A program made the position numbers and the translations under genes. Below are positions 1,600 to 61,770 of a stretch of 64,000 nucleotides of DNA, piece by piece (the first letter of the stretch is position 1; every line of letters starts with the position of its first letter). The DNA is from Eledone cirrhosa (Eukaryota): positions 208,196,001 through 208,260,000 of the forward strand of contig OZ024740.1 in the NCBI GenBank assembly GCA_964016885.1. Reading direction: 5' to 3'. The notes beneath the pieces were generated by a model, which did no database searches, was not told the DNA's origin, and saw only the letters and a list, made by a program, of their open reading frames with translations.

Positions 1600-1826
1600 G
1601 CACTAATTTGCATAATAGACTAAATAAATTTAATAACCCCACTATCCGGGAGCTTCCAACAGAAATGGTCGCATTCTTTAAGAGTATGTCAATATTTATT
1701 TATAAAACTGATCTATATTATATTTTATCTGATGAAAGCACACCATAATTTAACTTGGTGTCCTTGAAATATGTATAATGAAATAAATATGGTTTTATAA
1801 ATATAGTTTCCATTTGTTAATATATC

Positions 1827-1922: not shown

Positions 1923-1958
<36 letters not shown>

Positions 1959-2137
1959 TAATTTAATATATCTACTAACATAAGCGCACAGATGTACGCT
2001 AATGCCAGCAAATACACAGGTTATGTCATAGTACCTAGGTGGTTCAATGCAGGAGGATGCAGAACAATAATATAAAAGACGTAAAATAAGAAAATTTTTT
2101 TTAAAAATTTTAAAAAATTAACTTACTTAAATTTTCA

Positions 2138-2217
2138 CTCCAACTAATTAGTTTCTGCAATGGGATAAAGACAGTTACGTAATGAACTGTTGAGAATTTC
2201 ATTGCGTCATCAGGGAG
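2138..2217 (-). ncRNA. Type I hammerhead ribozyme
   Basis: Minus strand: ctcc CTGATGA c-gcaatg..(long insert)..cattgc-a GAAA ctaattag TT ggag. Palindromic stem III. Confidence 0.85.
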
Positions 2218-2692
2218 GTCTATTCTCAGCCAAGTCTCCAGGCAATGCGCGGACACTGGGGACTCATATAAAAATAATAATAATTCGGTAAATGGAACAG
2301 CTATCGAGGACTGGATTCCAGGCACTGAAAATTCTCACTGCCACCGGTCAAATGGCCGATTCTAAAGAATCAATCACGTGACACAGAGGCTAGTCAGTAG
2401 GAATGTGATGGTAAGATGACAGACGCCTACTAACACCCCACAAAAAAATTTTTTTAGTAGTGGTTTTGGCAGGTTTGCTCGACAAATCAGTGATTTGGAG
2501 ATAAATATAGATCATTTAATATATCTACTAACATAAGCGCACAGATGTACGCTAATGCCAGCAAATACACAGGTTATGTCATAGTACCTAGGTGGTTCAA
2601 TGCAGGAGGATGCAGAACAATAATATAAAAGACGTAAAATAAAAAGTTTTTAAAAAAATTTTAAAAAATTAACTTACTTACTTAAATTTTCA

Positions 2693-2772
2693 CTCCAACT
2701 AATTAGTTTCTGCAATGGGATAAAGACAGTTACGTAATGAACTGTTGAGAATTTCATTGCGTCATCAGGGAG
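2693..2772 (-). ncRNA. Type I hammerhead ribozyme (second tandem copy)
   Basis: Same motif as 2138-2217, 555 nt away. Confidence 0.85.
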
Positions 2773-3059
2773 GTCTATTCTCAGCCAAGTCTCCAGGCAA
2801 TGCGCGGACACTGGGGACTCATATAAAAATAATAATAATTCGGTAAATGGAACAGCTATCGAGGACTGGATTCCAGGCACTGAAAATTCTCACTGCCACC
2901 GGTCAAATGGCCGATTCTAAAGAATCAATCACGTGAAATTCTCAACAGTTCATTACGTAACTGTCTTTATCCCATTGCAGAAACTAATTAGTTGGAGTGA
3001 AAATTTAAGTAAGTAAGTTAATTTTTAAAAAATTTTTTTTTAAATTTTCTTATTTTACG

Positions 3060-3135
<76 letters not shown>

Positions 3136-3138
<3 letters not shown>

Positions 3139-3411
3139 TTAAAAATGTAAACTATCGCCGTATTTTGACTAAAGAAATTAAAGAAATTATTTAGCCTGAT
3201 AGTGGGCTTAAGAACCCTCGGAGAAATGGAAAAAGATGAGTATTGACGTACATGGGAGTCGAACGGATAACCAAAGATATGGGTTCGACTCCCATGTACG
3301 TCAATACTCATCTTTTTCCATTTCTCCGAGGGTTCTTAACCCCACTATCAGGCTAAATAATTTCTTTAATTTCTTTAGTCAAAATACGGCGATAGCTGAC
3401 ATTTCTAATAA
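3136..3411. repeat. Fold-back element (~128-bp arms, 18-nt loop) abutting (TA)n
   Basis: 3136-3264 is the near-perfect reverse complement of 3283-3411. Same family as 29087-29253. Confidence 0.85.
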
Positions 3412-4322: not shown

Positions 4323-4535
4323 TATATATATATATACGTATGTATACGTACATACATATATGTATACAGACGTACAGTAGTATGTATATATACATACATG
4401 CACACATATATATATGTACGTATGGATTCACCAAACATTTATTATAATGCTCGGTGTGTTTGTAAACAAACATCCCATATTAAACCGTAGTTTCTAGCAA
4501 CCAGCGTTGCTCGCTTGTTCAACACTGACACAGGA

Positions 4536-4578
4536 ACGCTGTACTAGTTTCAAGCTTGTTAGCTATCGTCAGCAACGT
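4536..4578 (-). ncRNA. Minimal type I hammerhead ribozyme
   Basis: acgttg CTGACGA t-agct-aaca-agct-t GAAA ctag TA cagcgt. Palindromic ACTAGT stem III. Confidence 0.85.
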
Positions 4579-4817
4579 ATACCTTCCTGCCAGATAGTTG
4601 AACGTCCGACATATATGTATGTACGTATACATACTTATATTTAAGTAACAGCCGTACTAAGAGTGGGAAATGAAATTTCGTTTCATTTTTTTCGTTTATC
4701 GTTTTCGGTACACCCGGCCGATTAACCCACTCGATATGCAAATTGGGCTACTCAGCCGTTAATATGCATAAGGAAAGTATATACTTTCGAACGTTCAACT
4801 ATCTGGCAGGAAGGTAT

Positions 4818-4860
4818 ACGTTGTTGACGATAGCTAACAAGCTTGAAACTAGTACACCGT
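4818..4860 (+). ncRNA. Minimal hammerhead, mutated copy (C3U)
   Basis: acgttg TTGACGA tagctaacaagctt GAAA ctag TA caccgt. Confidence 0.7.
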
Positions 4861-5169
4861 TCCTTTGTCAGTGTTGAACAAACGAGCAACGATGGTTGCT
4901 AGTCACTACGGCTTAATACGGGATGTTTGTTTACAAACACACCGAGCATTATAATAAATGTTCGGTGAATCCATACGTACATATATATATGTGTGCATGT
5001 ATGTATATATATATATACATACTACTGTACGTCTGTATACATATATGTATGTGCGTATACATACTTATATTTAAGTAACAGCCGTACTAAGAGTGGGAAA
5101 TGAAATTTCGTTTCATTTTTTCCGTTTATATATATATATATACATATATACATATATATATATATATAT

Positions 5170-5410: not shown

Positions 5411-5757
5411 GAATAAGTGTTTGTATATCGATCACTGAAAGATATGAAAATCTTGGTAGATACTTGTCAGATGAAACACCTTCAGTAATAATTAGTTAAG
5501 TGACTGACACTTATCCAATATATGGAATGTTGAAAATGTAGGCCAAACTGAACATCAAATACACAGTGAGGGGAATAAAAATAATCTTAATGGTCGACTA
5601 GGGTTATTTTCTCATAGCAGAGTTCTTATTGGAGTTCGATAAATGTAATTGCCATGTAGTATCGTAGATCGATAATCCCCCTCCCCCTACTCCTACTCCT
5701 CATCCTCATCATCATGAGGAGGAGAAGGATGACGATGATGATATTTGATGATGATAA

Positions 5758-5863
5758 TTGTTTCTACTTTTGGCACAAGGCCAGCAATTACCCAGTGCAT
5801 TACTGGTACTTTATTTTATCGACCTCGTAAGGATGAAAGGCAAAGTTAACCTCGGCGGGATTT
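5758..5863 (-). mobile_element. tRNA-derived SINE, 3' part
   Basis: Matches the full copy at 46582-46790. Confidence 0.85.
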
Positions 5864-8831: not shown

Positions 8832-11800
8832 TTACAGACACATACTCAGAGAAGGCCCATTCATTCGGGCCATACTTGCTTCTCTCACCCATCTTTCAAC
8901 AAAATGCTGGGAAGAGAGCACTTCCCTCTCTACCCTGATTTTCCTTTTCAAATGAAATTTGAAAAAGTTAATCAGGGCATCACCGAAGAGGTAAGTGCTC
9001 GTCTTCAGCCCTTTCAAACGTGTCCACCATACTATCTCTTTCGCCATGGCCACCAGACAGATAAAAACTGCCTGCCCTTCCAGGCTAAAGGAAGGGGGCG
9101 GGGCAATCCTCACGATGGACTCAGCTGATAGCTGGATCCGTCCTACACGTGACAGCAGGTGTTCGACATAAACCCACAAGTCAGCAATGCTCGGACACTG
9201 GACGAGTGCGTGCAGGACGGTTTCGTCGCCCTGCGCGCATCTCGGACATGCCCGGCTGACGGCACCTCCATGCCTGTAGAGTTTATCCCGAACTGGCAAA
9301 GCTCCTCGGTAGCACTGCCAGGCCAGGGATTTCTGGAAGTTGTCCATAGGCCCCGGCCCGAAAGTCCTTCCGAAGAGATTGGCTAGTTGATTTTCGTCGA
9401 CGCCTAGAGTTTCTCCAAGTACGTCGTCGCTCTTCCCCTCCACTAATCCCCTATAGAACGCCAAGGTGGAGTTTCCACCGATCACATTGCCCGATTGGTC
9501 GAGGGCTGTGAGCGCCTGAAGACATTCCAGTCTCCAAGCGCTCCCTCTCGGTCTTCGCTTGACCCAGGACTGCAGCTCCGTCAAGGAGACGAGCTGGGGA
9601 AAAACGTGTCTTGCAAACGGCGACCACACCTGATCACCGTCGAGGAAGAGGTGGAGATGTCTGCGCATCATCAGCCACGGTATGCCCAGCCCTCCACGTA
9701 GCGGGTGTTGACAGCAGATGGACCGCCTGACCATCGGAGCGCGTCCCTTCCACAAGAAGCGAAAGAGCAAACGCTCCAGCGCAGTCAGGCGGGGCTTAGG
9801 ACAAGGAACGACGGTCAGGCGGTAGTAGATGACGGATGCGATGTACGCATTCGCCACCTCCGCTCGACCTTTCAGGGATAGCTTCCTCTCGGCCCATTTC
9901 TGCGTGAGAGAAGCCACCCTGCTCGTCACCTCGTCCCAGTTTTTGTCCGTCTGGAGGTCTGGACCGAACCAGACCCCTAGCAATTTAACCGGTCCGTCCG
10001 TCCAGCGCCCGACGACGCTGTTGGACGGCATGGACCTGCCTCTCCAGGTGCCGAGCTGCAGGCCCACTGACTTTTCCTGGTTGATCATTGCTCCTGTCAC
10101 CGCTTCGTATTCTCTTAGTGTAGTGCCGATCGCCTCGATGTGTTTGGCGTTCGACACCACTACGGTGACATCGTCGGCATATGCTGACACGGATCTTCCG
10201 CATCCTAGTTCGCGCGGGACCCCCCTCAACGTCTCCAGTTTGTGCAGTAATGGCTCGATAGTCAATACGTACAATAGGGACGAGAGGGGACATCCTTGGC
10301 GGACCGAGCGCATGATGTTGAACGGTTCCGAAAGGTGACCGTTCACTCTCACTACAGAGCAGATGTCGCTGTGCATGGCAGCGATCCAGCCTCTGAAGAC
10401 GGGCCCAAAGCCAGCCGCCCTCAGGACTGCCGTTAGGTAACGATGGTCGACCCTATCGAAGGCTTTCGACTGATCTAAATTGATCAAAGACCCACCCGTG
10501 CCAGGTTCCCTAGCTACCCTCTCTACGATGTATCGCATGAGGTGGAGGTTGTCGTGGATGGATCTGTCGGGAATGGCGCATGTCTGCGCCTCTCCCACCA
10601 GACCACCAACGACAAGCGCCAACCTCTTTGCTAGCACCTTGGCCAAAATCTTGAACTCTGTGTTTAGCAGAGTTATGGGCCTAAAATTATCTATGTTATC
10701 CCCCTTGTTCGGATCCTTTCTCAGCAGCGCCACCGCTCCTCGGCTCACAGAGCTGGGAATTCTCCCGTTCTGTTGCCAGTTGCAGTAGACGTCCGCCAAG
10801 AGGCCTCCGAACAAGTTTGGCATTTGTACGTAAAGTTTATAGGGCAGACCATCCAAACCAGGCGATTTACCCCTTGTGCAACTAGTCATTGCATCCCGTA
10901 CTTCAGCGGTTGTTATCGGCTTTTCGCAACACTCCGCCTCAGTGGCCGAAAGCCGCGGCAGTCCGTCGAGGTAGACACTAAAGTCCATCCCTCGATCCGG
11001 CCCGTCACTGCCCCCGAACAGTTGAGCGAAGTGTCGCTGAAAAGCTTCACACATTTGCCCGGGATCGAGTAGCATGCGCCCGTCGTGGTCCACCAAAGAC
11101 CGGATCGTGGCTTTGTTGCCACGACGCGCCTCCGCCACTCGGGCCCATTGAACGGCTTTCGTCCCCTCGTGTCTGAGAGCACGCACCCTAGCTCTGACAA
11201 CGCAGCCTTCGTGCTTTGCATTGAAGAATTGGTCAAGGGCCAATTTCGCCGCAAGTACGTCGGTCGCGATGCCTTTGCTAAGCGCCTCATCTAATTTTCT
11301 AACTAGTTCTCCCTCTGCTCTATTTTTCTCTATTGCTAAAGTCTTACTAAACCTAATGGACTCTATTCTAATTGCTCTTTTCAGAGCAAACCACCACTTG
11401 TTGTTGACGATGGCCCCCGTCAACGCCCGCTTAACTAGTTTGCTAATCCGGTCTCTGTAGGCCTTGCGCGCTGGTAAGGACGCGTTTAGCTTCCAGTAGC
11501 CGGGTCCTCGCCTATGAAGCCTATCTAAGTCAAGCACACAGATCACGAATGTGTGGTCCGTGTAGCTGACTATCTTGAATTGTGGACAGCCTATGCTAGA
11601 CCTATCTATTTCCCTACAAAATACTCTATCTAGATATGATCTGGATGACCCTATGCGATTTGTCCAAGTCCACATTGGTACATTCGGGAAATCCATTCGG
11701 TACCTGTCAGACAGTTCAAAACGTCTGAGCAGGTTGGTGAGACTCTTGCACCCTCCTTCCCTATCCACTAATCTCACACAATTCCAGCGTGCATCTAAGA

Positions 11801-12233
11801 TCCCGTTCCAGTCGCCCACTAACACTAAAGAGCGGGACGTTCCAAGAAAGGTCTCCAGACGCCGGAAGAAATCAGGCCGCCCTGCTCCTGTCGGGGCATA
11901 GACGGCCACTAACCTGAAAGCTTGCCCGTCTCCGCTGGTCACGTCCAGCACCACCAACTTACCTTCTGGGTCCAGGAAGATGGCCCGTATGGCAAGATCC
12001 AAACCTCTCCGAAAAAGCACAGCAACTCCTCCCCCCGATCCCGGACGGCTGGGAGATGTGTACACATTGTAGCCGCCGAAGATCGGTGCGAAAGCCTGTG
12101 CTTCGGAGATTCTGGTCTCGCTGATGGCCACTACATCTATGTTTAGTGATCTGAGGTCGTTGAGCAGGTGGCCCTGCTTCCATGACGACCCCAAGCCACG
12201 CGCATTTATGCTGCCTATTCTGAGTGAGGTCAT
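8832..12233 (-). CDS. LINE ORF2: APE endonuclease + reverse transcriptase + C-terminal Zn finger (1133 aa)
   Basis: APE motifs SINARG, ISET, VYAP, GDWN, YLDR, TDH. RT motifs PGLDG, FRPITLLN, DQSKAFDRVDH, VRQGCPLS, YADD. C-terminal CPRC..ETVLHALVQC. Confidence 0.97.
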   Translation of the reverse strand: MTSLRIGSINARGLGSSWKQGHLLNDLRSLNIDVVAISETRISEAQAFAPIFGGYNVYTSPSRPGSGGGVAVLFRRGLDLAIRAIFLDPEGKLVVLDVTSGDGQAFRLVAVYAPTGAGRPDFFRRLETFLGTSRSLVLVGDWNGILDARWNCVRLVDREGGCKSLTNLLRRFELSDRYRMDFPNVPMWTWTNRIGSSRSYLDRVFCREIDRSSIGCPQFKIVSYTDHTFVICVLDLDRLHRRGPGYWKLNASLPARKAYRDRISKLVKRALTGAIVNNKWWFALKRAIRIESIRFSKTLAIEKNRAEGELVRKLDEALSKGIATDVLAAKLALDQFFNAKHEGCVVRARVRALRHEGTKAVQWARVAEARRGNKATIRSLVDHDGRMLLDPGQMCEAFQRHFAQLFGGSDGPDRGMDFSVYLDGLPRLSATEAECCEKPITTAEVRDAMTSCTRGKSPGLDGLPYKLYVQMPNLFGGLLADVYCNWQQNGRIPSSVSRGAVALLRKDPNKGDNIDNFRPITLLNTEFKILAKVLAKRLALVVGGLVGEAQTCAIPDRSIHDNLHLMRYIVERVAREPGTGGSLINLDQSKAFDRVDHRYLTAVLRAAGFGPVFRGWIAAMHSDICSVVRVNGHLSEPFNIMRSVRQGCPLSSLLYVLTIEPLLHKLETLRGVPRELGCGRSVSAYADDVTVVVSNAKHIEAIGTTLREYEAVTGAMINQEKSVGLQLGTWRGRSMPSNSVVGRWTDGPVKLLGVWFGPDLQTDKNWDEVTSRVASLTQKWAERKLSLKGRAEVANAYIASVIYYRLTVVPCPKPRLTALERLLFRFLWKGRAPMVRRSICCQHPLRGGLGIPWLMMRRHLHLFLDGDQVWSPFARHVFPQLVSLTELQSWVKRRPRGSAWRLECLQALTALDQSGNVIGGNSTLAFYRGLVEGKSDDVLGETLGVDENQLANLFGRTFGPGPMDNFQKSLAWQCYRGALPVRDKLYRHGGAVSRACPRCAQGDETVLHALVQCPSIADLWVYVEHLLSRVGRIQLSAESIVRIAPPPSFSLEGQAVFICLVAMAKEIVWWTRLKGLKTSTYLFGDALINFFKFHLKRKIRVEREVLSSQHFVERWVREASMARMNGPSLSMCL

Positions 12234-12267
12234 GTTGAAAAGGAGTGGAAAAGATGGGAAAGACCAC

Positions 12268-14246
12268 TTACCTTACTTCTCGTAGGGGAAGGACGGCTTT
12301 TCCATCCTTTTCACTGCTTGTGGCCTCCTCAGGAAGGATGTCCTTATAAATCCTCCTGGAGAGTGCTTGTCGGAAGTCTCCGATGTCTTTGGGGAATTTT
12401 TGTTTTAGTGTCATGTACGTTTTCTGTGTGATGCGAGTGATTTGTATGTGTGGAGGTGGTGTGAATTTTGGGGTTGTTGTGTAGTCTTTTTCTGTGATGC
12501 TGGTGTTGTGTTGGATGTAGTGTAATAATTGCTTGTTGTTCAAATTTAATGCTGTGTAGTGTGTATCGTTTTGGTTGTTTTGTTTTGTTTGCGTTTGTTG
12601 TGGGTTTGTTTCTGTTTCGCATTTTGGTGACTTTTGTGGTGTAGGTGATGGTGGTGTTGGAGTTAATGATGGTGATGGTGTTGGTGTTTGGGTTGATGGG
12701 GTTGGTGATGCTGGTGTGGATGGTGGCATATCTGTCCTAACTTTTTTGTTTCTTAGTTTATTTGTTTCCCTCTGTATTTTGTTTTTGGAGAGGGAAGGAA
12801 GAGAATTTTTTCTTTTTTGGTTTCTTTTTTTTTCCGGATATCGTTTCCCACTCCTCGTCGTCACAATCTGTCTCCAGTTGTGATAGGCCGGGGAGTGGAA
12901 AATCCTCCACAGCCGTTAGTTTTGGTTGTGGTGTGGTGGATGGTGTAGGCGCTGGTGCTAGTTCTGACGCGTTGGGTGGTGGTGGTGTTGGTTTTGCTGG
13001 CGGTGGTAGTGGTGTTGGTTTTGCTACTGTTACTGGGGTTGTTGCTGTTATAGTTGCTTCTGTTGTTGCTGCTACAGTTGTTGCTGCCATCTCTGCTACT
13101 GGTGGTGTTGATGGTTGTGTCACTGGGGTGGGTAGGAGAGGTGGCCTCAACCTTTTAGCCTGAGGGCAGAAAGCCCTTAGGTGGGTTCCTTCACCACAAA
13201 CGACACACCTAGGTCTTCTGCCCTCGACAATTACCGTGAGGTGGCTGCCGTCAGTGAGGTCTATTACCTCTGGGATCTCCTCAATGCTTTTTTGGTCCGC
13301 TTGGATCAGGAGCTCCATCCCAGATCCGGACCAGTTTTCCTGCTTTTCTTTTGCTACTGCTATTATTTTCGTGTTGGCTTCGATGCCGGCGAGGACAGCC
13401 GCTATTAGCCAGGGAATTTCGATGGCCGGTGGAACGTGGGTCACCCTGATCTTTACGAGTCTCTGGCCACAATAGCTTGGGACGAGTGTGAGGTCGTCAC
13501 TTTTTAATGGGGCCATGGAGTGTTCTCTAGCCTCCTCTGGTGTTTCAAAGAACACATCCACGGTTCCATACTTTTTCCCACGTCTGATGTGGGTTTTTCT
13601 TGCCCACACATGTCCCAAAGCTTTTTGGATTTGGGACTCGGATGCCCGTTCCACTCGGCGCGATTTTACATTTATTGTTCTATACGACACGGTGCACAGG
13701 CGCCGATGCTCCATTTTATTAGGTGGGGGGTGAGGCTGACCCTGTACCCATCTTTCTTTACCATTTGTTTGGCATTTTCTAAATCTTCTTGAGTTACCGT
13801 GAACGCTTCGAATTGTTTTGCTACGATGGCGAAACTGAGGGTCGGTTTTATAATGTCATTGTTGTTGTTGTTGCTATCGTTAATATTAATTTTAGTTTCA
13901 GTTGTGGCGTTGGTGACGTCAGTCGTCTTTGGTGCGGAAGACTCCATTTTGCTTGATTTCATTTCGACATCACGAGTTAATTTATTTTTTTCTTCTTTTG
14001 TTTCTGTTGTCGCGGTGGTGGTGGGGGGGGGTTGTCGCGGTGGTGGTGGTGGTGGAGGCTTTAACACCTGCAGTCATTGGTAATGGCGGGAAATGAATGT
14101 CTGCCTGAGACAAATTTAAAATATTGCTACTGCTTATATTTTTTTTGTGTTGGCAAACGTAGTAACATTTACAATGGTGGTGACGGTGTGAGGTGTTATT
14201 TTGTGAGGAAGGCTTTCAGCTGCTTCGTGCAGAGGTGAATTAGCCA
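12268..14246 (-). CDS. LINE ORF1 (gag-like, CCHC knuckle), split by four 1-bp homopolymer indels
   Basis: Joins ORF pieces 13672-14067, 12758-13714 and 12268-12864. CVVCGEGTHLRAFC is CX2CX4HX4C. Candidate ATG at 14246. Confidence 0.8.
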
Positions 14247-18429: not shown

Positions 18430-20455
18430 ATTATAATAATATTTATAATAATTAACTCCGTATTAGCACCACCAACTACACAAACGAATACCGGTGAACT
18501 GCACTACGTTGAGTACTCTCCATAATATTACACCAAGATTGACCATACGGAATGACCAATTCTATCCAGTGGTGAACCAACAAACCTAAATAATGCTCCA
18601 ATAATGTTGAGCACTTCCAGATGTTATATTGAACAGCGGCACTGACTTCAGTGTACAGCTATTGCCAGCATGGGATTAACTGATCTACTTACCATTCGGA
18701 TTTTGGTTGATCTGTGCTTTATCTACCGCCCACCCTATCCAATGCTGCTTCCTTGCCGGAAATATTCGGATTTCGACAAAATTCTACGTATTATACTTAA
18801 ACATGTATTGTATTGACTGAATTCTCTACTCTATACCTCAGGACATTTTTGCGACTCACACTGAATTCGGAGACCCGAACTTTACACTAGGTACCACCTG
18901 ATACCATTCCATCTCTTCCATCCTCTATATCTATGTGTACAACCTTTATTATCTTACTACAACTTGATCTATTTTGTATTTCCCCTTTCCTTTGATTCCT
19001 CCAATATGTTCTTATATATTTCCGTCTTACTACATCACTACCCTAGCTATGACGGCGTTTTATTTATGTTTTTTACTTTTTACTTTTTACTTTTTACTTT
19101 TTACTTTTTCCCTTATTAATGTATTTTTATTAATGTATTTTTTATTTATTTTTTATCTTTGTATTTTTATCTTTGTATCCTGCTTTTATTTATTTGTGAT
19201 TTTCTGTTTATTATTCCTTACTCAGGTCATTATGCACCATTCATAGCTCCTTACCCACCAAAGAACCACACTACTTATAACCCGGACTAACTGGGACTTA
19301 AAAATAAAAATAATTATAGTCTATTCGCACTTTTCATTGGGTTTTACCACTTTCGACTGATGTGGTGGATTTCCCGGCTGTGCGCCGGGTGCTCGGAAAG
19401 TTCAGCCTTCCTTGGGTGCTTGGAAAAATAAAGTTTACCCTCTTTCGGTAAACGAAACTACTCGGAGCGGATCGATTAGCCCCGGGGCCCGCCGCACCGC
19501 CTGTTTTGACCGCCACATTATACTCATACCTATAAACTCTAGGCTTAGGCATAACTGTTAGCTGTATCATGCCTCCCTCTGCTGGCACGTAAATAAACCC
19601 CTCCTGTGTGAATTAATATTATTCGTTTGGTATAGACGATGGCCTGTAGAAGCTGGTTGACTTCCCGCTAGCATACCCGGAGCCTATCGCAGCTATGTTC
19701 CTAAAGTACTCGGAAAAATTAATTTCCATTTATTTCGCTAGAAGATACCACTCGAAACTGGCTGACACGTGGTTAGGAGGTGCTGGCTGGGTTTTACAAT
19801 CGAAGGCTTTAATCTTTACTCTATATCCCACCTTGATAACTTATCGAGATTCCCTATAATACACTTAAACTTTTTCATATAAGACTCTCTCTGTAATTTC
19901 ATTAAATAAATCTCGCAACACAAACCTTTAATTTTCTATTAATTTTCTAATAATTTAATTTCATCCTATAACTCTTAACATAAGTTAACGTTCCAATTTT
20001 CTGTTCACACATTAGACCATACAGACACCCATATATATGCCTTTGTTAAAATATGGGTTCTTTGGAATAACATTTTTCGCGACCTCTTCTAGCATGACTG
20101 TAGTGTGACCCTTACGCTGACTTTTCTTCTTTCTTTCTTTCTTTCTTCTCATTTTTTATTCTCTGACGGAGAGGTGGTAGTACATTATAAGCCTTCGCCC
20201 CCTCACCAGATGGTCATTAGTAGACCGACTTGCCATCACTTGAGGGCGACTGACCGAGGGGAAAGCAGCTAGTTGGTCAGTCGTCCTCTCTGTTTCTGAT
20301 TTCGGACCCATGGTTTTTATATATTCCTTTGTTATAATTCGAATACCTGATGATATCACCGGATTCATACGGAACCCGGTCATTGAAATGAACATAGTAT
20401 AATAAAGTTTTCAAGGATTTACACCAGTCCAGCCTTCTGATATTTTATTTATAAT

Positions 20456-22602: not shown

Positions 22603-22723
<121 letters not shown>

Positions 22724-22914
22724 GGTTTGAGGTTCACCACTGTATAGAGCTGGTCTATTCCGAATGGTCAATCGTAATGCAATAATATAGAGAGTACTCA
22801 ACGTAAGGCAGTTCAACCGTCTTTGTTTTTGTAGTTGGTGGTGCTATTACGGAGTTAAATATTATAATGAAATGACAGGAGGCTGGATTTGTGTAAATCC
22901 TTGAAATGTTTATT

Positions 22915-22972
22915 ATACTATGATCATTTCAATGACCGGGTTCCGTATGAATCCAGTGATATCATCAGGTAT
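22915..22972 (-). ncRNA. Type I hammerhead ribozyme
   Basis: Reverse complement of 25181-25238. Confidence 0.82.
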
Positions 22973-25180
22973 TCGAAATATAATACGTGAATGTAATAGA
23001 TAAAATCCATGGGGCTGCAACTTGAACTATATTGTATTTCTCCTGTGTCTTGAACTCTCCATCTAATAGACAACGACTCTTGTTTGTTTATTTATATCTT
23101 TACATCTTTATTTGCTGTATTAATGCTTCTCCACGTATTCTACCTCTATACATCCATGTACTTTCTACTTCCCTTATTCGGACTTTTACTCGCGTGTACC
23201 CTTAGCACACGTCACTGGAATATCTCCCCCTGGGAACATAAATACCGCAACCTGAACTATATTGTATTTCTCCTGTGTCTTGAACTCTACATTTACTTGA
23301 CAACGACTATTGTTTGTTTATCTATATCTTCACATCTTTGTTTGCTGTATTAATGCCTTTCCACGTACTCTACCTCTATACATCCATGTACTTTTTACTT
23401 CCCTTATTCGGACTTTTACTCGCGTGCACCCTTAGCACACGACATAGGATTGCCCCCCCCCCCCCCCCCCACGGAACATAAATACTGCAACCTGAACTAT
23501 ATTGTAATTCTCCTATGTCTTGATTTCTCCATCTTACTCCAACACCACTCTTGTTGGTTTATTTAAATGTTTATACCTATATATTGATATGTTTATATAT
23601 TTATACCTCTGCTGTACCAATGGGCTCTTCCACGTATTCCACTTCTATGTATCCATGTATTTCTACTCCTCACATTGGGACATGTACCCATTAGCACACG
23701 ACACTAGAATGTCTCCTCCTGAGAACAAAAATTAAACATTACACGACTATATCCCGTACTCTACATCCCACTAGGATAAATTACAGATCTACATAATACA
23801 ATTAACGTTTCTTCATAAAAGATTCTATTTAATTAAACCCCGCAACCCAAAACCTCATAGAAGTTATTTGAATGTTTAATCTTCAATTTTCTGTTTGTTC
23901 AATTCTCAATCTTCTTACTCCTTAGTTTTATAATGTTATTCTGAATTCTTTCAACTTCATCCGATAGAGTTAAGCAAAATTCTAAAGTTCCAACTTTCTG
24001 TCGGACCGTTGGGTGGGTTTTAGCGGCTGCGCGACCAGCTCCCTGGCGAACGAGCTCACCTGGAGTGCTTGGAAAAATAAATTTCTCCTTCTTTCGGTAA
24101 ATGAAAATACTCGGCGTGGCTTAATTCGCCATGGGGCCCGGGGCGCGGCCGGTGTTTTAACCGCCACATAGTACCTTTAAATTACAGAACAAATCGGAAC
24201 TATTAGATATATCAACCTGAAAGTGTTAAACTGTTGAACTTTAAATTTTCTAACCTCTTTAATATGGAATATTGATTATTAATTTTTTAACTTCATCCTA
24301 TAAGTCTAAACATTGTAACACACTGACTCCCAATATATTCACCTCTGCTAAGATACGGGTCCCTGTGAAAATTTTCTCGCGCCACTCCTGGCCCGACTGG
24401 GGTGTGACATTAATATCGACCTTCCTTCCTCTCTCTTTCTATCTTCCTTCTTGTAGCCATCAACCATTACTCTTCTACTTCTCTAAGCAAAATTTTTAAG
24501 TTCCAACTTTCTGTCGGACTGTTGGGTGGATTTTAAATGGCGGCGCGACCAGCTCCCTGGCGAACGAGCTCACCTGGAGTGCTCGGAAAAATAAATTTCC
24601 CCTTCTTTCGGTAAATGAAAATACTCGGCGTAGCTTAATTCGCCATGGGGCCCGGGGCGCGGCCGGTGTTTTAACCGCCACATAGTACCTTTAAATTACA
24701 GAACAAATCGGAACTATTATATAATAAAATGTTAAACTGTTGAACTTTAAATTCTCTAACCTCTTTAATATTGAATATTGATTATTAATTTTTTTAACTT
24801 CATCCTAGAAGTCTAAACACTGTAACACACTGACTCCCAATATATTCACCTCTGCTAAGATGCGGGTCCCTGTGAAAATTTTCTCGCGCCACTCCTGGCC
24901 TGACTGTGGTCTGACATTAATATCGACCTCTCTTCCTCTTTCTTTCTATCTTCCTTCTTGTAGCCATCAACCCTTACTTTTCTACTTCTCTCTTCTCTTC
25001 CTTCTCTTCTCCCCTCTTCCTGTTCTCGTTTATCTAACCAGTAGTAGCATACTATAAACTTTAGCCACGTCACTCCAGGGCGACCGGCTGAAGTTGAAGG
25101 AACAGAATAGCGGTCGCCCTCGGGTCCTCGATTTTCAGCCCCATGGATTTTATCTATTACATTCACGTATTATATTTCGA

Positions 25181-25238
25181 ATACCTGATGATATCACTGG
25201 ATTCATACGGAACCCGGTCATTGAAATGATCATAGTAT
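25181..25238 (+). ncRNA. Type I hammerhead ribozyme
   Basis: atac CTGATGA stem II GAAA tgatca TA gtat. Palindromic ATGATCAT stem III. Confidence 0.82.
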
Positions 25239-25288
25239 AATAAACATTTCAAGGATTTACACAAATCCAGCCTCCTGTCATTTCATTA

Positions 25289-25347
<59 letters not shown>

Positions 25348-29086: not shown

Positions 29087-29253
29087 CTTTCACCGTATTT
29101 TTGACTAAAGGAATTTTAGCTTGATAACGGGGTTTAGAACCCTCAGATAAATGGAAAAAGATGAGTATTGACGTACCATGACGTTCCATTTATCTGAGGG
29201 TTCTAAACCCCGTTATCAAGCTAAAATTCCTTTAGTCAAAAATACGGTGAAAG
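29087..29253. repeat. Perfect fold-back (~69-bp arms) abutting (TA)n, family of 3136-3411
   Basis: ctttcaccgtatttttgac...aaatggaa / ttccattt...gtcaaaaatacggtgaaag. Confidence 0.88.
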
Positions 29254-29344
29254 CTATATATTTTCTAATTTCAAACTCGCTCACTGTTTCAAAACATACT
29301 TACTTGCCATATATATATCAAATATAGAATATAGTTGTATATAA

Positions 29345-37416: not shown

Positions 37417-37507
37417 CGAAGGAAATGTGGTAAGGAACCAAGTGGACCATAACGCACCAAAGTACTCAATACTTAGGGTAGTAGAGTGGGTAATATGAAC
37501 AAATAAG

Positions 37508-37601
37508 ACCCCGACGGCTGAGCTCAAGCCGTTTCGACGGCTAATTCTGGACTGAATGAAAATTTATTCTGGTATTTAAATAGCCGAGCTTGTCAAGGGG
37601 T
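37508..37601 (-). ncRNA. Type I hammerhead, U3-A8 variant
   Basis: Reverse complement of 39203-39296. Confidence 0.8.
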
Positions 37602-37995
37602 AATTCCATATATGGTCAAAGAGATAAACACCAGGATTGGTCACATCACAAGTTAGTAGTAAATCTGTGATGGCAAAGTGGTGGGGGAAGGGGTAGCTGA
37701 ACCTGCCGGTAGGAGAAAAAGGGAGAGGGGGTGGAGTAGACCCATTCAAGCGTTGGTAGTGCCGGCTACAGCTGGGTGTGAGGTCAAAGAGGATACTAGG
37801 GAGGGGGAGGGGGAGGAAGTCGAAACGGTAAGTAAGAACAATGAAGGGTAAAACTATGAAATGTACTGAGAGAGAGAAAAGAAAAAATAAGCAAGGTCTG
37901 GTTACTAAGACTTAAATCTCTCGTTATTGCTAGGCTAAAGAAATACATAAATAAATAAATGAACAAATAAGTGAATAAAAGAATAGATAAATAAA

Positions 37996-38046
<51 letters not shown>

Positions 38047-38396
38047 GAAGAATAAAAAATAAATAAAAATAAACTAGGTGGGACGGAAATAAAGGGACCC
38101 TTATACGAGGCGAGAAAAAGACGACGACAAAGAAAGGGAACTGTTCCCTTTCTTTGTCGTCGTCTTTTTCTCGCCCACCCGAGGTAGCCCCTCGGTCCCT
38201 TGTCGCTTCAGCACCTCCCCCCCTCCCCTATTCTATGATAGATTTGGCTGACTCCGCTTTTTATAGCAGAGGTGCTAGACTTCGGATACTTGCCCCCTTC
38301 TCCGACCGCTGTCGCTTTTCTCCGTGCCTTCTATATTTCTTAGTGGCATTTTTGCTTTAATTTTTCGTTTAACCAGTATTTCTTTCCTCTTTTTCC

Positions 38397-38428
<32 letters not shown>

Positions 38429-38775
38429 GGGGTTCTGTATTAATTTTCCGTTCCTTACCTTTACCTCGCACGATCTTTCATGTAGCCTGTATAAGACATT
38501 TTGTTTCGTTACCCTTAGAGTTAGCACGAGTATTTTTTTGCGGGACCCTGAATTATATTCTCGTACTAGTTTACCTTCTTGCTCTGGGTGGTTGCTAGCC
38601 CCGTGATCGGGGTAGAAACCTTTATTATTTCGTGGTAGTCTCTTTAGTATTTTGCCCCCCCCCCCCCCCCCCTTTGTTGACCCGTCACCGTACGATACAC
38701 GCACTTATACCTCGTATAAGGGTCCCTTTATTTCCGTCCCACCTAGTTTATTTTTATTTATTTTTTATTCTTCAT

Positions 38776-38806
<31 letters not shown>

Positions 38807-39202
38807 TTTATTTATCTATTCTTTTATTCACTTATTTGTGTTCATTTATTTATTTATGTATTTCTTTAGCCTAGCAATAGCGAGAGACTTAAGTCTTAGT
38901 AATCAGACCTTGCTTATTTTTTCTTTTCTCTCTCTCAGTACATTTCATAGTTTTACCCTTCATTGTTCTTACTTACCGTTTCGACTTCCTCCCCCTCCCC
39001 CTCCCCAGTATCCTCTTCGACCTCACACCCAGCTGTAGCCGGCACTACCAACGCTTGAATGGGTCTACTCCACCCCCTCTCCCTTTTTCTCCTACCGGCA
39101 GGTTCAGCTACCCCTTCCCCCACCACTTTGCCATCACAGATTTACTACTAACTTGTGATGTGACCAATCCTGGTGTTTATCTCTTTGACCATATATGGAA
39201 TT

Positions 39203-39296
39203 ACCCCTTGACAAGCTCGGCTATTTAAATACCAGAATAAATTTTCATTCAGTCCAGAATTAGCCGTCGAAACGGCTTGAGCTCAGCCGTCGGGGT
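39203..39296 (+). ncRNA. Type I hammerhead, U3-A8 variant with full stem III
   Basis: acccc TTGACAA g..cggcta...tagccg.c GAAA cggct-tgagctc-agccg TC ggggt. Confidence 0.8.
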
Positions 39297-39308
39297 CTTA
39301 TTTGTTCC

Positions 39309-39363
<55 letters not shown>

Positions 39364-39445
39364 AAAGTTTTATTTAAAATTGTTGGGTTACAACAAGTAA
39401 ATATTTTATAACTGATATAAAGCACTCGACAAGTTTTGGAGTAGA

Positions 39446-40729
39446 TATACGATATTAAACAAATGGAAAACTATATTTATAAAACCATATTTATTTCATT
39501 ATACATATTTCGGGGATACCATATTAAAAATATGGCATGCCTTCTTCAGATAAAATACAATATATAAACAGTTTTAATAAATAATTTTGACGTACCATAA
39601 ATATTGAGCAACCTTTATGTAAGAAGCCGGTTTGGTAGTGAGATGTTTATAAATATTTAGTGTTAAGCACAGTTAAAAAGACAGACGGAGAAAAAGAAGA
39701 AATGTATGTAAAGAAAAACAGAGAGAAATAGAGAGAGATAGGGGAGAGAGAAATAGTGAGGAGGTGAAAAAAGAGAAGCAGCTGAAGGCAACAGATGAAT
39801 AATAATAATTCATCATACAAATTGAGAGATTTAGGAGGGAGGGAGTACTGTAATTATTTAGTTATAGTGTTAAGGACAGTTAGGGAGGAGACGGAGAGAA
39901 ATAAAAAATGAAGAGAAAAACAGAGAGAGAGAAAGATAGAGGGTGGAGGGGGGAAAAAAAAGAAAGAGGTAGACCAAATAATAATAATTATATAGGGGGA
40001 GGTGCAAATTCAAGAGAGAAATAGGAGAGAAATAAGAGAGAAACTTGAGAGGCAAAGTTAAAACAACAGATACATAGATTTCATCATATATAAAGAGGGG
40101 AGGAGAAGAAAGAGCTATATCTAGAGAGAGGGATGATAGATTTACATCTTTACGTTATGTCCTATCAATTTTGAATTATCAATTCATATGAACTGGGTAA
40201 TATAATGTAAATATCAATATTCATGAATAATAACTGAATAAATTGCTCCTTAAATTAAGGGAATTTTGGATTTTTAATATAAAGAATATCTCCTCCACAC
40301 AGAGGTCACATGTCTCAGATGAGGAATATTAAAAGGAATCCCTCTTGAGACAATATTCCAAAACATCGAATACCCAACGTTATCATGTTTAAGTTGCCAG
40401 AGTAAGCCTGATAGTGAAGTTGAAGATTTTTTGTTTGGATCTATGAAAGAATTCTGTTTTTCTTTACATACATTTCTTCTTTTTCTCCGTCCTTTCTTTT
40501 TAACTATGCTTAACACTAAATATTTATAAACATCTCACTACCAAACCGGCTTCTTACATAACGGTTGCTCAATATTTAGGGTACGTCAAAATTATTTATA
40601 AAACTGTTTATATATTGTATTTTATCTGAAGAAGGCATGCCATATTTTTAATATGGTATCCCCGAAATATGTATAATGAAATAAATATGGTTTTATAAAT
40701 ATAGTTTCCATTTGTTTAATATCGTATAT
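39446..40729 (-). mobile_element. 5'-truncated Penelope-like element with inverted pLTR
   Basis: Arms 39446-39722 / 40453-40729, each with an HHR-like core (39495-39556 -, 40620-40680 +). Minus 40450-40230 encodes NSFIDPNKKSSTSLSGLLWQLK..W.IVSRGIPF / TCDLCVEE..LN.RS, a PLE GIY-YIG C-terminus. Confidence 0.8.
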
Positions 40730-41062
40730 ATATATATAATAAGGAGTTGACGGACCCAACATATATATATAGATATATATTGGGTCATCAAGTATGAAAT
40801 TTGTAAAAAAACAAAAAAAAACAAGTTTCTACAAGTTTCATACTTGACGACCCAATATATATAGGTTTATATTTATATTAATAGCGGTATATATGAAAGC
40901 ATATACTATATGTTTATTATCGCACCCCTATTATGCTAAACGCTAATCTTGCAATATATAATAAGAGATGTCAACATGAATGGACCTGTCATTTTTATCT
41001 AAAGACATTTTTTTCCAATTCCATCCCGCCCGTCCCCTCAATCTATCTTATTTCTCATTCTT

Positions 41063-45674: not shown

Positions 45675-46064
45675 TATAAAGTATGTCCATAGAATCATTT
45701 GACAATATATATACACTATTTCCTCTCCCAATTAGCATAATTAACCACACAAAAAATTAATTAGACCAGGCTATAAGATTAAAAGGCACCTGTGAAGAAA
45801 TAGTAGATAAATAAACGACAGCAATCTCTTCGCGACCAACCGCCATAGAATATTTACCCAACATTTCAACAGCACGTGGAAATCGATTAAATATACCGTC
45901 AACCATACACAATTAGGTATAAAATTAAAGTTAGAAGAACAAATGCATATACACATACCAGGATTACGTTTCTATCCTAGAGTTTCTTTCGCTTTTGGAA
46001 ATATCCTATTAAGGATAAAATCTCGAGCTTCGAACTCATCAGGAAACAAACTCATTTGGACAAA

Positions 46065-48682: not shown

Positions 48683-49393
<711 letters not shown>

Positions 49394-49406
49394 TGAAATA
49401 CTCAAC

Positions 49407-49647: not shown

Positions 49648-49785
<138 letters not shown>

Positions 49786-49943
49786 ATACTTTGGGAGGGT
49801 CATGTTGCCAATAAGAAACACACGCACCAGTTGCTTTCACTTCAATTTATTATATATTTATAAATTTATAAATTTACAAATTTACAAACTTATAAATTTC
49901 TGGTTGGTTGGTTGGTTCCACAACCAGATAGTTGTTTATATAT

Positions 49944-49988
49944 AGTCATAGTCCTTTCGTCACACACTCTGTGACCTCTTCAGTGACT
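49944..49988 (-). ncRNA. Type I hammerhead ribozyme in the PLE 3' pLTR
   Basis: agtca CTGAAGA g-gtcac-agagtgt-gtgac GAAA ggac TA tgact. Confidence 0.85.
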
Positions 49989-50283
49989 GGGGATTCCTTT
50001 CTTCGTTTCTGTGCCTTTCCTTTCTTCTATCCTACGCCATTTTGTTTCTGTGTGTGTGTTGTGTGCTCAGTTTGCGCATGCGCCACATCCGGGTGTCTGT
50101 GTGTGTTTGTGTTCATTTATCTATTTGTTTATTTATTTATTTATTTATTGTTGGTTGGTTGTTTGTTCTATGTGTGTGTGTGTTTTCATTTTGTCCTGTG
50201 TGTGTTTTCATTTTGTGTGTGTTTCCATTTTGTCCTTAATTTAAGTTGTTTGTTCTATGTGTGTGTGTGTTTTCATTTTGTCC

Positions 50284-50760
50284 TTAATTGTAAGTTGTGA
50301 TGTTGCTGTTCCACTCATATTTTCTATTTAATTTTGGTTTTAATTCTTTTATGCTTACTGCCTCTGTAATTTGCCTAAACATTGCGTCTTTTCTGTGTGT
50401 GGATTCTATTTTTATTTCTATGCTCTCTAATCTACCCCTGTGTTCTATCTTAGCATGTTGGTAGAGCACAGATGATTCTTTATTATCTTGGAGGTCTCGC
50501 CAGTGTTCATTTATTCGTTCCCCTATACTACGAGCTGTCTCACCTATGTACACTATATTTTTGTTTCTACATTGTCCTTCAGTACATCTTATGCTATACA
50601 CTACATTTCTAGTTTTACAGTTAATATGGGGGCTTATTTTACAGGTTATACATTTCTTATCTATACATGAGGGTCTTTGGAACGGGTATGTCTTGCTAAT
50701 AAGTGTTTTTACGGAGGTACCAGGTCTTTCTACTATCTTAATATTAAGATAGTAGAAAGA
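50284..50760 (-). pseudogene. PLE GIY-YIG endonuclease domain, 5'-truncated
   Basis: Cys-rich linker, VVY..C..YIGETAR..R..EH, RQITEAV.I..LNRKYEW. The first ~50 codons of the called ORF are read through the inverted arm. Confidence 0.9.
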
Positions 50761-50947
50761 CCTGGTACCAACCAACCAGAAATTTATAAGTTTGTAAATT
50801 TGTAAATTTATAAATTTATAAATATATAATAAATTGAAGTGAAAGCAAGTGGTGCGTGTGTTTCTTATTGGCAACATGACCCTCCCAAAGTATAACAATA
50901 TCGGTTTCAACACACGATTTCAGATAAAGAATCTTGCTAAACAAAAT

Positions 50948-51027
<80 letters not shown>

Positions 51028-51669
51028 GAGAAAACTCAACGCTTGAACAGCAGTTAAAACAGTGTGTTGCCGCAAAGAAGTGACTGGAAGGGTAGATAAA
51101 GAAAGGCAATGTACAAGACAGCTTTGCACACACATCTTCACCCTCACCAGCTCTCAAACCAGTAAAATGGTTTCGCACGATTTATTTAACGCAAAGAAGG
51201 TCTATGTACGTTGTCCAGAGCATCAATATCGGCTCCAAATTATTAATTTGGAAACCGATTCGGTAAAGGTAACTATAGTAAGTAAAGTCAATCGTTTAAA
51301 ATTTATTTTGAAACTTTTTCATTATTTGCTAAACCTGATTATATATGTTCTGGCTCGTTAATTTATTAACCTGCCATTGAATCACATTGGCATATGGTTG
51401 GACAATACATGTGTCCCTTAGCGCTTTGTGCGTGTAGGAACACATATCCTATTATTACTATACTCCTCTATGTTGAGAAAAAATTTGGTCGCTCCGACTG
51501 CTGCTAGTGATAGTGGTGACCGTTTGACCTATCTCACTCTGCCTCTATCTTTACTTCGGCCCTTGAAAAAAATTGATTCCACTTCATTTACTCTCATCTC
51601 GGGAACAGTTTTGGATAGCGCTAGTTCGTAATTTAAATTCAAGAATTTTATATTCTTCGAATGAAAAGA

Positions 51670-51753
51670 ACCTTCTGACGAGAATCTTTCTTTGCAACGA
51701 AGGCCGTATGATCTCCGTTTATTTTTGAGATTCGAAACCGATTCGGTAAAGGT
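51670..51753 (+). ncRNA. Type I hammerhead ribozyme
   Basis: acctt CTGACGA gaatct...agattc GAAA ccg-att-cgg TA aaggt. Predicted cleavage after 51748. Confidence 0.9.
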
Positions 51754-52152
51754 AACTATAGTAAGTAAAGTCAATCTTTTAAAATTTATTTTGAAACATT
51801 TTCATTATTTGCTAAACCTGATTATATATGTTCTGGCTCGTTAATTTATTAACCTGCCATTGAACCATATTGGCATATGGTTAGACAATACATGTGTCCC
51901 TTAGCGCTTTGTGCGTGTAGGAACACATATCCTATTATTACTATACTCCTCTATGTTGAGAAAAAATGTGGTCGTTCCGACTGCTGCTAGTGATAGTGGT
52001 GGCCGTTTGACCTATCTCCCTCTGCCTCTATCTTTACTTCGGCCCTTGAAAAAAATTGATTCCACTTCATTTACTCTCATCTCGGGAACAGTTTTGGATA
52101 GCGCTAGTACGTAATTTAAATTCAAGAATTTTATATTCTTCGAATGAAAAGA

Positions 52153-52236
52153 ACCTTCTGACGAGAATCTTTCTTTGCAACGAAGGCCGTATGGTCTCCG
52201 TTTATTTTTGAGATTCGAAACCGATTCGGTAAAGGT
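52153..52236 (+). ncRNA. Type I hammerhead ribozyme (second copy)
   Basis: Same motif, predicted cleavage after 52231. Confidence 0.9.
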
Positions 52237-52699
52237 AACTATAGTAAGTAAAGTCAATCTTTTAAAATTTATTTTGAAACTTTTTCATTATTTGCTAAAC
52301 CTGATTATATATGTTCTGGCTCGTTAATTTATTAACCTGCCATTGAACCACATTGGCATATGGTTGGACAATACATGTGTCCCTTAGCGCTTTGTGCGTG
52401 TAGGAACACATATCCTATTATTACTATACTCCTCTATGTTGAGAAAAAATGTGGTCGTTCCGACTGCTGCTAGTGATAGTGGTGGCCGTTTGACCTATCT
52501 CCCTCTGCCTCTATCTTTACTTCGGCCCTTGAAAAAAATTGATTCCACTTCATTTACTCTCATCTCGGGAACAGTTTTGGATAGCGCTAGTTCGTAATTT
52601 AAATTCAAGAATTTTATATTCTTCGAATGAAAAGAACCTTCTGACGAGAATCTTTCTTTGCAACGAAGGCCGTATGGTCTCCGTTTATTTTTGAAGGGA

Positions 52700-53146
52700 T
52701 CGTTACTTATTTCACACATCCGATCGTTTTCGGTACGCCGGGCCGACTAACTAACTCGATATGCAAATTAGGCCGCTCAGCCGTTAATATGCATAAGGAA
52801 AGTATATACTTTCAAACGTTCAATCAACTGACAGGAAGGTATACGGTGCTGACGATAGGTAATAAGCTAGAAACTAGTTCATCGTTCCTTTGTCAGTGTT
52901 GAACAAAAGGGCAACGATGGTTGCCGAGCACTGTACGGCTAATAATTCGGGCTGTTTTATTTACAAACAAATCGAGCATTATAATAAATGTTCGGTAAAC
53001 CCATACGTACATATATATATATATATGTGCATGTATGTATATACGTACTACTGTACGTCTGTACACATGTATGTATGTACGTATACATACTTATATTTAA
53101 GTATCAGCCGCACTAAGAGTGGGAAATGAAATATCATTTTTTCCAT
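52700..53146 (+). mobile_element. Monomer of the 4337-5129 family with HHR at 52843-52885
   Basis: acggtg CTGACGA tag..cta GAAA ctag TT catcgt. Homologous to 4698-5129 and ends in (TA)n. Confidence 0.85.
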
Positions 53147-53294
53147 TTATATATATATACATACATATATGTATGTATGTATGTATGATGTATGTATAAT
53201 GCATACACATCGTTTTGCACAATACCTTCTTATATTTCCGGAGCTGCAATTTGTCTTCAAAGGCATGTGAATGATAGCAAACACACAAATATAC

Positions 53295-57078: not shown

Positions 57079-57096
57079 TATATATATATATATAAA

Positions 57097-61572: not shown

Positions 61573-61767
61573 ACAAAGGAATTGTGGTAAGGAATCAGAT
61601 GGACAATAACGCACCAGAGTACTCAATACTTAGGGTAGTAGAGTGGGAAATTGGAAAAAGTATTACCCCGACGGCAGAGCTCAAGCCGTTTCGACGGCTA
61701 TTTCTGGACTCAGTCCAGAAATAGCCGTCGAAACGGCTTGAGCTCTGCCGTCGGGGTCATACTTTTT

Positions 61768-61770
<3 letters not shown>
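61571..61770. mobile_element. Mini fold-back of the 37413-39310 family
   Basis: Homologous to 37413-37553. Near-perfect palindrome centred at ~61710 containing only the HHR 3' half. (TA)n on both sides. Confidence 0.88.

Follow-up and report, generated by a model that had tools for sequence, protein, structure and literature searches.

Non-LTR retrozymes of animals have been described as units of 150-450 bp, with a span of '150 to >1000 nt' allowed; the units studied in 2020 measured 170-400 nt, and PLEs were proposed in the same work as a 'strong candidate' for the mobiliser of retrozymes (Cervera and de la Pena 2020, PMC7229834). A recent preprint gives animal retrozyme consensus lengths of 51-972 bp with a mean of 650 in fish, links retrozymes to the pseudo-LTRs of PLEs and backs the PLE link by vertebrate distribution and phylogeny (Li et al. 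2026, 10.64898/2026.07.22.740005). In PLEs, the hammerhead (HHR) motifs combine a helix I of 4-5 bp with an extended helix II, one additional base following A9 and the pair G10.1-C11.1; their in vitro activity was reported to be low, dimers included (Cervera and de la Pena 2014, PMC4209133). In Octopus vulgaris, 30 recently active Penelope families are described in a report that makes no mention of ribozymes (PMC13282606), and no report of retrozymes in octopus or other cephalopods was found in the open-access literature.

The footprint described for PLE insertion comprises a partial tandem, an inverted 5'-truncated copy and a tail of 30-40 bp at one end; target-site duplications are concealed by the (TA)n bias of PLEs, and a CX4CXXC-type linker is tied to the Neptune PLEs (Craig et al., PMC8557442). 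The commonest form of Penelope combines a full-length downstream copy with a 5'-truncated upstream tandem copy, with inverted repeats flanking the whole (Schostak et al., PMC2377424). Both strands of AT-rich DNA serve as substrates for nicking and extension by a purified PLE protein, which initiates reverse transcription internally, at two positions 3' of the HHR, and uses uncleaved RNA, HHR cleavage not being needed for insertion (Frangieh et al., PMC11167929).

Here we describe a locus in a 64-kb stretch of DNA from Eledone cirrhosa (the window) that probably records the recent insertion of a non-autonomous, PLE-derived HHR element of the non-LTR retrozyme type, with a unit of about 555 nt. 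The surrounding region is animal-like DNA rich in microsatellites. The sense strand of the insertion is the minus strand, and its end points, which lie inside microsatellite, carry an uncertainty of a few bases. The locus is composed of the following features:

1925..1960, no strand: left flank, (TA)n followed by (GA)n microsatellite
1961..3066, minus strand: entire insert, consisting of 1.76 tandem units and a 3' piece inverted head to head
1961..2381, minus strand: downstream repeat copy
2138..2217, minus strand: type I HHR motif 2, first base after cleavage 2141
2142..2696, minus strand: predicted cleavage-to-cleavage monomer of 555 nt, 37% GC, non-coding
2382..2513, minus strand: single-occurrence segment of 132 nt that links both copies
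2514..2936, minus strand: upstream repeat copy, 5'-truncated at 2936
2693..2772, minus strand: type I HHR motif 1, identical to motif 2, first base after cleavage 2696
2934..3066, plus strand: inverted arm, a 5'-truncated copy of 2626-2756 with the 3' half of an HHR and about 71 nt
3065..3134, no strand: right flank, (TA)35 microsatellite

Self-alignment returned a direct repeat of 1945-2381 against 2498-2936 at 96.8% identity. Within the clean repeat (1961-2381 versus 2514-2936), mismatches occupy 9 of 425 aligned columns, and all nine are confined to the A/T tract 2089-2120. The main 3' end of the insertion (1961) is located 181 nt past the cleavage site, just beyond a long hairpin, and the second 3' end, that of the inverted arm, about 71 nt past it. 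The arm aligns as 2934-3069 against 2623-2756 at 94.9%; because it begins inside stem II, it holds only the 3' half of an HHR, and its junction displays a 3-nt microhomology at 2934-2936. Since the insertion ends within microsatellite, no target-site duplication is readable. Both insertion junctions show some homology to the target, which is weak evidence: the left flank matches the continuation of the unit at 11 of 16 bases, a level reached at 2 of 553 positions, for a length that was chosen after the fact and with a weaker match at other lengths. No such homology of the target to the initiation site was seen by Frangieh et al. (PMC11167929). The tandem at 1961-2936 is unlisted by TRF (period up to 1000, parameters of Li et al.), because the array has only 1.76 copies, and such a listing is an operational filter of the Li et al. 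pipeline, not a biological feature. As regards copy number, two core matches occur in the window. Directly to the right of the insertion lies a near-perfect fold-back element (3134-3410, MFE -206 kcal/mol), with diverged relatives at 29087-29287.

The HHR motifs define the unit. A preliminary description had placed two identical minus-strand HHRs 555 nt apart, and 2138-2217 and 2693-2772 are indeed identical 80-mers at this spacing. On the minus strand, each motif opens with a 4-bp stem I, CUGAUGA and one extra C, continues with a stem II of 6 bp around a 37-nt insert (a stem II region of 51 nt), and closes with one extra A, GAA, the 10-nt palindrome ACUAAUUAGU, a U at position 17 and stem I'. 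The parse confirms the palindromic stem III of the earlier account, and the stem II insert is present, its length being 37 nt instead of the roughly 40 nt given before; our descriptor also yields the same first bases after cleavage, 2141 and 2696. Helix I is the open helix, which assigns the motifs to type I, and helix III consists of 3 bp and a tetraloop within the 10-nt palindrome. The catalytic boxes are complete in both motifs of the consecutive units, and position 17 and the base of stem II are non-canonical. The cleavage triplet is GUU, and U17 can pair with A14, lengthening the palindrome to 12 nt; a U at position 17 slows HHR cleavage. In the G10.1-C11.1 register an added A precedes GAAA, the alternative reading being a C-A mismatch.

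Rfam covariance models at the gathering threshold returned no HHR in the 64-kb window, and at E<=10 they gave four weak matches, all unrelated to HHRs; the remaining 13 cores of the window were likewise missed, so that a hand-written HHR descriptor was needed. This descriptor returned 14 rows (13 distinct cores), whereas 100 block-shuffled windows gave 0.03 on average and never more than 1; a relaxed version added two further cores, for a total of 15.

In agreement with the preliminary description, the HHR-to-HHR unit is non-coding: the longest stop-free frame of the circular unit is 71 aa (41 aa from ATG). No long frame, and no RT plus GIY-YIG ORF, was found across the six frames of 1961-2936, and the element is not an autonomous PLE. 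The unit had also been regarded as unusually large for a metazoan retrozyme. This does not hold, since 555 nt falls within the published 51-972 bp (10.64898/2026.07.22.740005), and '150 to >1000 nt' is stated elsewhere (PMC7229834).

The insertion at 1961-3066 displays the features of PLE-type integration, namely a partial tandem, a 5'-truncated upstream copy, an adjacent inverted copy and a (TA)n target. The one-end extension is about 110 nt (181 versus 71 nt), as compared with the published 30-40 bp. The inverted arm had been noticed before and is present; what the preliminary description missed is that it belongs to the standard footprint of PLE insertion. What the sequence itself shows in favor of our preferred reading is the unit with its HHR, the absence of coding potential, the geometry of the insertion and, elsewhere in the window, a true tandem unit homologous to it. 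In such a model, a tandem source locus would give rise to a multi-unit transcript. Pol II would be the probable polymerase, as the five runs of at least 5 U in the 555-nt unit would stop Pol III; no Pol III A or B box, TATA or octamer was found in the unit, and no tRNA was found in the window. A PLE RT/GIY-YIG protein supplied in trans would bind a conserved segment 3' of the HHR and nick both strands of the (TA)n/(GA)n tract. cDNA synthesis would start internally at two sites, 181 and about 71 nt past the cleavage site. The resulting cDNAs, 976 nt and about 133 nt long and primed from opposite strands, would be joined head to head through the 3-nt microhomology. Two internal start sites, as reported for PLE protein (PMC11167929), would explain the one-end tail. 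A 555-nt monomer, whether linear or circular, might also arise. A circular template, as in the retrozyme model (PMC7229834), would lead to the same insertion as the multi-unit RNA, so that the locus does not discriminate between the two.

The same geometry recurs across the window, which contains 15 HHR cores at 11 loci. A head-to-head inverted 3' copy is present at six of the 11 loci (1961-3066 and those at 4329, 22721, 39361, 49782 and 56541), the other five being unrelated in sequence to 1961-3066. All nine HHR loci checked end at or beside (TA)n, and microsatellite is found at both ends in five of the six inverted-arm loci. A stem II region of 49-52 nt occurs in 3 of 11 motif types, and a non-Watson-Crick stem II base in 6 of 11. 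The recurrence bears on the possibility of a DNA-level duplication with fold-back inversion of one old HHR copy, or of an assembly error in microsatellite-rich sequence. Near-identical copies that differ only in homopolymer tracts, in a window dense in simple repeats, would be in keeping with such an event; the equal geometry at five HHR loci of unrelated sequence, the clean microhomology junctions, the different 3' ends on the arms and the fit to the published PLE footprint (PMC8557442, PMC2377424) argue against it, and we consider this origin very improbable.

Several of these loci carry structures of their own. A type I HHR at 1721-1785 (plus strand), 180 nt to the left of 1961-3066, belongs to an unrelated family common to 39361-40732, itself an inverted-arm HHR element. 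The HHR element at 22721-25295 has an inverted arm that encloses tandem repeats of 230 nt and about 510 nt without HHRs, with relatives at 20300-20455 and 18456-18592. Further HHR elements are located at 4329-5129, 52700-53150, 56541-57079 and 45967-46048; two of these four carry partial tandems of about 430 and 300-330 nt together with inverted arms, and one has a 49-nt stem II region that is non-homologous to the 555-nt unit. A large element at 37493-39311 has inverted arms of about 600 nt and related pieces at 61573-61772, and neither descriptor detected an HHR in it. In addition, the window contains an uninterrupted 1146-aa LINE frame at 8832-12272 (minus strand) with endonuclease, RT and zinc-binding domain, Tx1/L1-like by its named distant match, and a possible upstream ORF at 12758-13855 with a weak MBD match. 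A SINE-like repeat family of about 115-200 nt is dispersed at 5748-5862 and more than 10 other sites, and a frame at 48683-49396 (plus strand) matches the HTH of Mos1/mariner transposase.

A coding member of the putative mobilising class is also present in the window:

49782..50949, minus strand: 5'-truncated coding PLE with a GIY-YIG end, a CX4CXXC linker, an inverted arm and (TA)n on both sides

Its GIY-YIG frame is matched in Pfam at E 8e-5, and the GIY-YIG end of the ORF is 45-50% identical to four longer proteins, which shows that the mobilising class exists in this genome. The HHR of this element, at 49988-49944, is of the minimal type and lies about 300 nt past the stop; the inverted arm has an end that is about 48 nt longer, and the non-coding 3' end measures about 500 nt. 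A coding PLE with a non-coding 3' end of this length makes an ORF-less 555 nt compatible with a longer parent.

Alternatively, the insertion might stem from a template jump that linked two 3' ends, each 5'-truncated, of a longer and possibly autonomous PLE. The 555-nt spacing would then mark the point at which reverse transcription happened to stop, and no 555-nt family would exist. The locus has a single unit junction, so that 555 nt is a candidate repeat length. The upstream copy stops where the main 3' end of the insertion does, as a second initiation would give, and the non-coding 3' end of the local coding PLE is of similar length. Template-jump junctions probably occur in the window, since the jump-like tandem junction of element 4609-5129 is absent from its relative at 52700. 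The three copies at 1961-3066 differ in the A/T tract by 6-15 columns, which could mean different template RNAs; as a counterpoint, the differences are limited to this one slippage-prone tract, with none in the other approximately 390 columns. Published tandems, moreover, carry a full-length downstream copy (PMC2377424), the HHR of the coding PLE is of a different, minimal type, and the left flank resembles, weakly, the end of the once-only segment. Within the window, the closest relative of the unit is a true, non-coding tandem that resembles it in size and HHR type, although its significant homology ceases near the end of the copy, as the template jump would have it. Weighing these observations, we regard such an origin as unlikely, and favor insertion of a true non-autonomous unit. 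The relative and the shared segment are as follows:

51248..52694, plus strand: array of a related 483-nt HHR unit (3.0 tandem copies) in which two HHRs, at 51670 and 52153, are complete
2514..2696, minus strand: 183-nt post-HHR segment, homologous to the counterpart in the 483-nt unit

The 483-nt array is listed by TRF at 3.0 copies, its units differ among themselves at 4-12 positions, and it ends inside stem II, where the 52700 element starts. Its stem II region is 52 nt, versus 51 nt in the 555-nt unit, and its HHR is more canonical, with a GUA triplet, G10.1-C11.1 and an active fold that is the MFE fold; this array is a better retrozyme candidate than the insertion at 1961-3066. The global alignment score of the two units exceeds that of all 300 shuffles. 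Over the first 183 nt after cleavage, 123 of 161 aligned bases are identical, a level reached by none of 1000 shuffles, and past this point the similarity is non-significant, both for the once-only segment (430 of 1000 shuffles) and for all the remainder (178 of 1000). Post-HHR segments of seven other loci gave no significant match to the 555-nt unit (25-449 of 500). A DNA alignment of the 11 HHR regions was poor, yet it pointed to the 555/483 similarity; RNAalifold on three units relied on a poor alignment that was out of register at the HHR, and its pair counts were left unused. Folded separately as circles, the two units form a similar helix series. Homology of the 183-nt segment to a tandem 483-nt unit favors a true non-autonomous unit. 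The position of the segment roughly corresponds to that of the region for protein binding and initiation in the anole PLE (PMC11167929), and the segment may serve as a candidate signal for PLE protein.

We next consider the ribozyme, for which the folding figures are secondary-structure estimates without tertiary contacts. The MFE of the HHR motif is -14.7 kcal/mol and its active fold has -12.2 kcal/mol, under the threshold of -5 kcal/mol of Li et al. In the minimum-energy fold, which is inactive, the CUGAU core is paired with stem III. The active fold of the lone motif lies 3.0 kcal/mol above the free ensemble, as compared with 1.0 kcal/mol in the motif of the 483-nt unit and about 7 in two minimal motifs, and 3.1-3.6 kcal/mol above the ensemble in the nascent RNA. 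In the core dimer, a double hammerhead costs 5.7 kcal/mol versus 11.9 for two separate folds; in the 973-nt RNA this advantage is smaller (9.8 versus 11.7 kcal/mol). The motifs had been called intact, which is true of their catalytic boxes and less so of the GUU triplet, the irregular stem II base and the predicted inactive ground-state fold. Most likely, cleavage by the HHR is slow and proceeds either from a double hammerhead formed via the palindromic stem III or with the aid of a protein. In an RNA that reads through the inverted arm, a duplex of about 130 bp is predicted to cover the point at which HHR1 cleaves, and a fold with both HHRs active would cost 96-100 kcal/mol. The arm would, in these predictions, block the upstream HHR, so that a monomer from this locus would require a transcription start between 2933 and 2773.

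These results bear on whether 1961-3066 is an active retrozyme locus from which a 555-nt RNA is efficiently released and circularised, and whether it was inserted by rolling-circle reverse transcription of that circle, which is a sub-case of the favored explanation within the same class. Both catalytic cores are complete, the active fold in nascent RNA is merely 3.1-3.6 kcal/mol above the ensemble, and the copies are identical apart from one tract. Elsewhere, a U-U mismatch at the helix II base does not abolish cleavage by the axolotl HHR, and retrozyme circles are abundant in coral, mussel and axolotl (PMC7229834). By comparison, the GUU triplet, a U17-A14 pairing that can extend the palindrome to 12 nt, the sequestration of the CUGAU core and the arm duplex over HHR1 all speak against efficient release. 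In vitro cleavage was seen in only one of nine predicted Xenopus dimers, eight remaining uncleaved (Li et al. 2026, 10.64898/2026.07.22.740005), and the HHR of the anole PLE requires protein to cleave, with no RNA-seq reads that ended at its HHR site (PMC11167929). We judge an efficient circle-producing locus to be improbable. A 555-nt circle is a plausible product of the favored non-autonomous element, yet insertion does not require one. That the family to which the unit belongs makes a 555-nt circle in vivo is somewhat doubtful, and a circle from the 1961-3066 copy itself would be less likely than one from the family unless transcription starts within 2933-2773.

The predicted circular fold of the 555-nt unit is 68% paired and more stable than 30 of 30 shuffles (z -4.5). 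Among 48 low-repeat windows of this length (of 49 eligible), however, 7 show as large an excess, so that fold stability adds little, and the opposite strand of the circle also gives z -3.3. A helix across the cleavage/ligation site is found in both circular folds (555 and 483; P 0.91-0.94) and is non-significant: it also arises when the circle bodies are shuffled (33 of 120 and 26 of 120 circles), and shuffles equal its duplex energy in 86-195 of 1000 and 405-574 of 1000 cases. A long-range helix into the once-only segment, common to both units, is likewise non-significant (338 and 688 of 2000). The 183-nt segment also contains a prominent hairpin:

2520..2569, minus strand: 23-bp hairpin, 6 G-U versus 0 A-C pairs on the strand of the HHR, with a second copy at about 1967-2016

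In the 555-nt unit, G-U versus A-C pairs number 9 versus 2 over four hairpins, and in the 483-nt unit 2 versus 1. This excess is suggestive of RNA-level selection or A-to-I editing, with counts too small to support a claim; A-to-G is not predominant among the differences between the 483-nt units. A splice-donor-like hexamer occurs 13-16 nt past the cleavage site, at 2681-2676 and 2126-2121 (minus strand) and at 51761-51766 (plus strand), only in the 555- and 483-nt units, being absent from nine other post-HHR segments. Penelope carries an intron near its HHR, and the hexamer may be an intron remnant or a matter of chance.

In a broader and distinctly speculative model, the 555- and 483-nt units would form a retrozyme family of about 500 nt with a large hammerhead (a stem II of about 50 nt and a palindromic stem III of 10-12 nt) and a shared structured 183-nt domain that recruits PLE protein and sets the start of reverse transcription, while an internal strand, by pairing over the cleavage site, would keep the ends together for ligation and inactivate the ribozyme once the RNA is circular. 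If true, the locus would represent direct structural proof of retrozyme insertion by PLE machinery, and would provide a ready non-coding template for mapping the PLE cis signal. A 183-nt segment kept in two diverged units provides a testable candidate cis element.

In comparison with known systems, the best class match of 1961-3066, supported by its sequence features, is the metazoan non-LTR retrozyme, as the preliminary description had proposed. The element, a candidate retrozyme, appears to work like a non-LTR retrozyme and to have been inserted like a PLE. Like metazoan non-LTR retrozymes, it has type I HHRs in consecutive units, is non-coding and has a GC content below 50% (37% here). It differs from them in that 555 nt exceeds the 170-400 nt of the units studied in 2020 (PMC7229834), and in having only 1.76 units plus an inverted arm. 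Canonical animal type I HHRs have a stem II of about 4 bp and a stem III of 1-2 bp, whereas here a 51-nt region and a 10-nt palindrome are found.

With endonuclease-bearing PLEs (Penelope/Poseidon, Neptune), the insertion shares the partial tandem, the inverted 5'-truncated copy, the one-end extension, an HHR within the repeat and the (TA)n target; it is distinct from these in lacking an RT or GIY-YIG ORF and in its extension of about 110 nt versus 30-40 bp. Its HHR resembles those of PLEs in the 4-bp helix I, the long helix II and the extra base after A9 (PMC4209133), but unlike the minimal HHR of PLEs, in which helix III is absent or 1-2 bp, helix III here is not minimal, and an extra A precedes GAAA. 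Tandem genomic type I HHRs, with palindromic helices III able to form double hammerheads, are likewise present in newt satellite 2, schistosome SM-alpha and the W-element (PMC6765202, PMC8490949, PMC6155905). In contrast to the newt and schistosome repeats, the 555-nt unit has no Pol III A or B box and contains five U-runs, and 1961-3066 is a dispersed short insertion, not a long satellite. Plant LTR retrozymes also have a non-coding HHR-to-HHR unit of comparable size (600-1000 nt), whereas theirs are type III HHRs with LTRs, PBS/PPT and 4-bp TSDs, and the HHRs here are of type I. As class, size and PLE link are already in print, the element itself will be unsurprising to a specialist, and its value is that of a worked example in which a retrozyme-type unit bears the mechanical footprint of PLE insertion. 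Taken together, these comparisons place 1961-3066 in a known class, that of non-LTR retrozymes and non-autonomous PLE derivatives.
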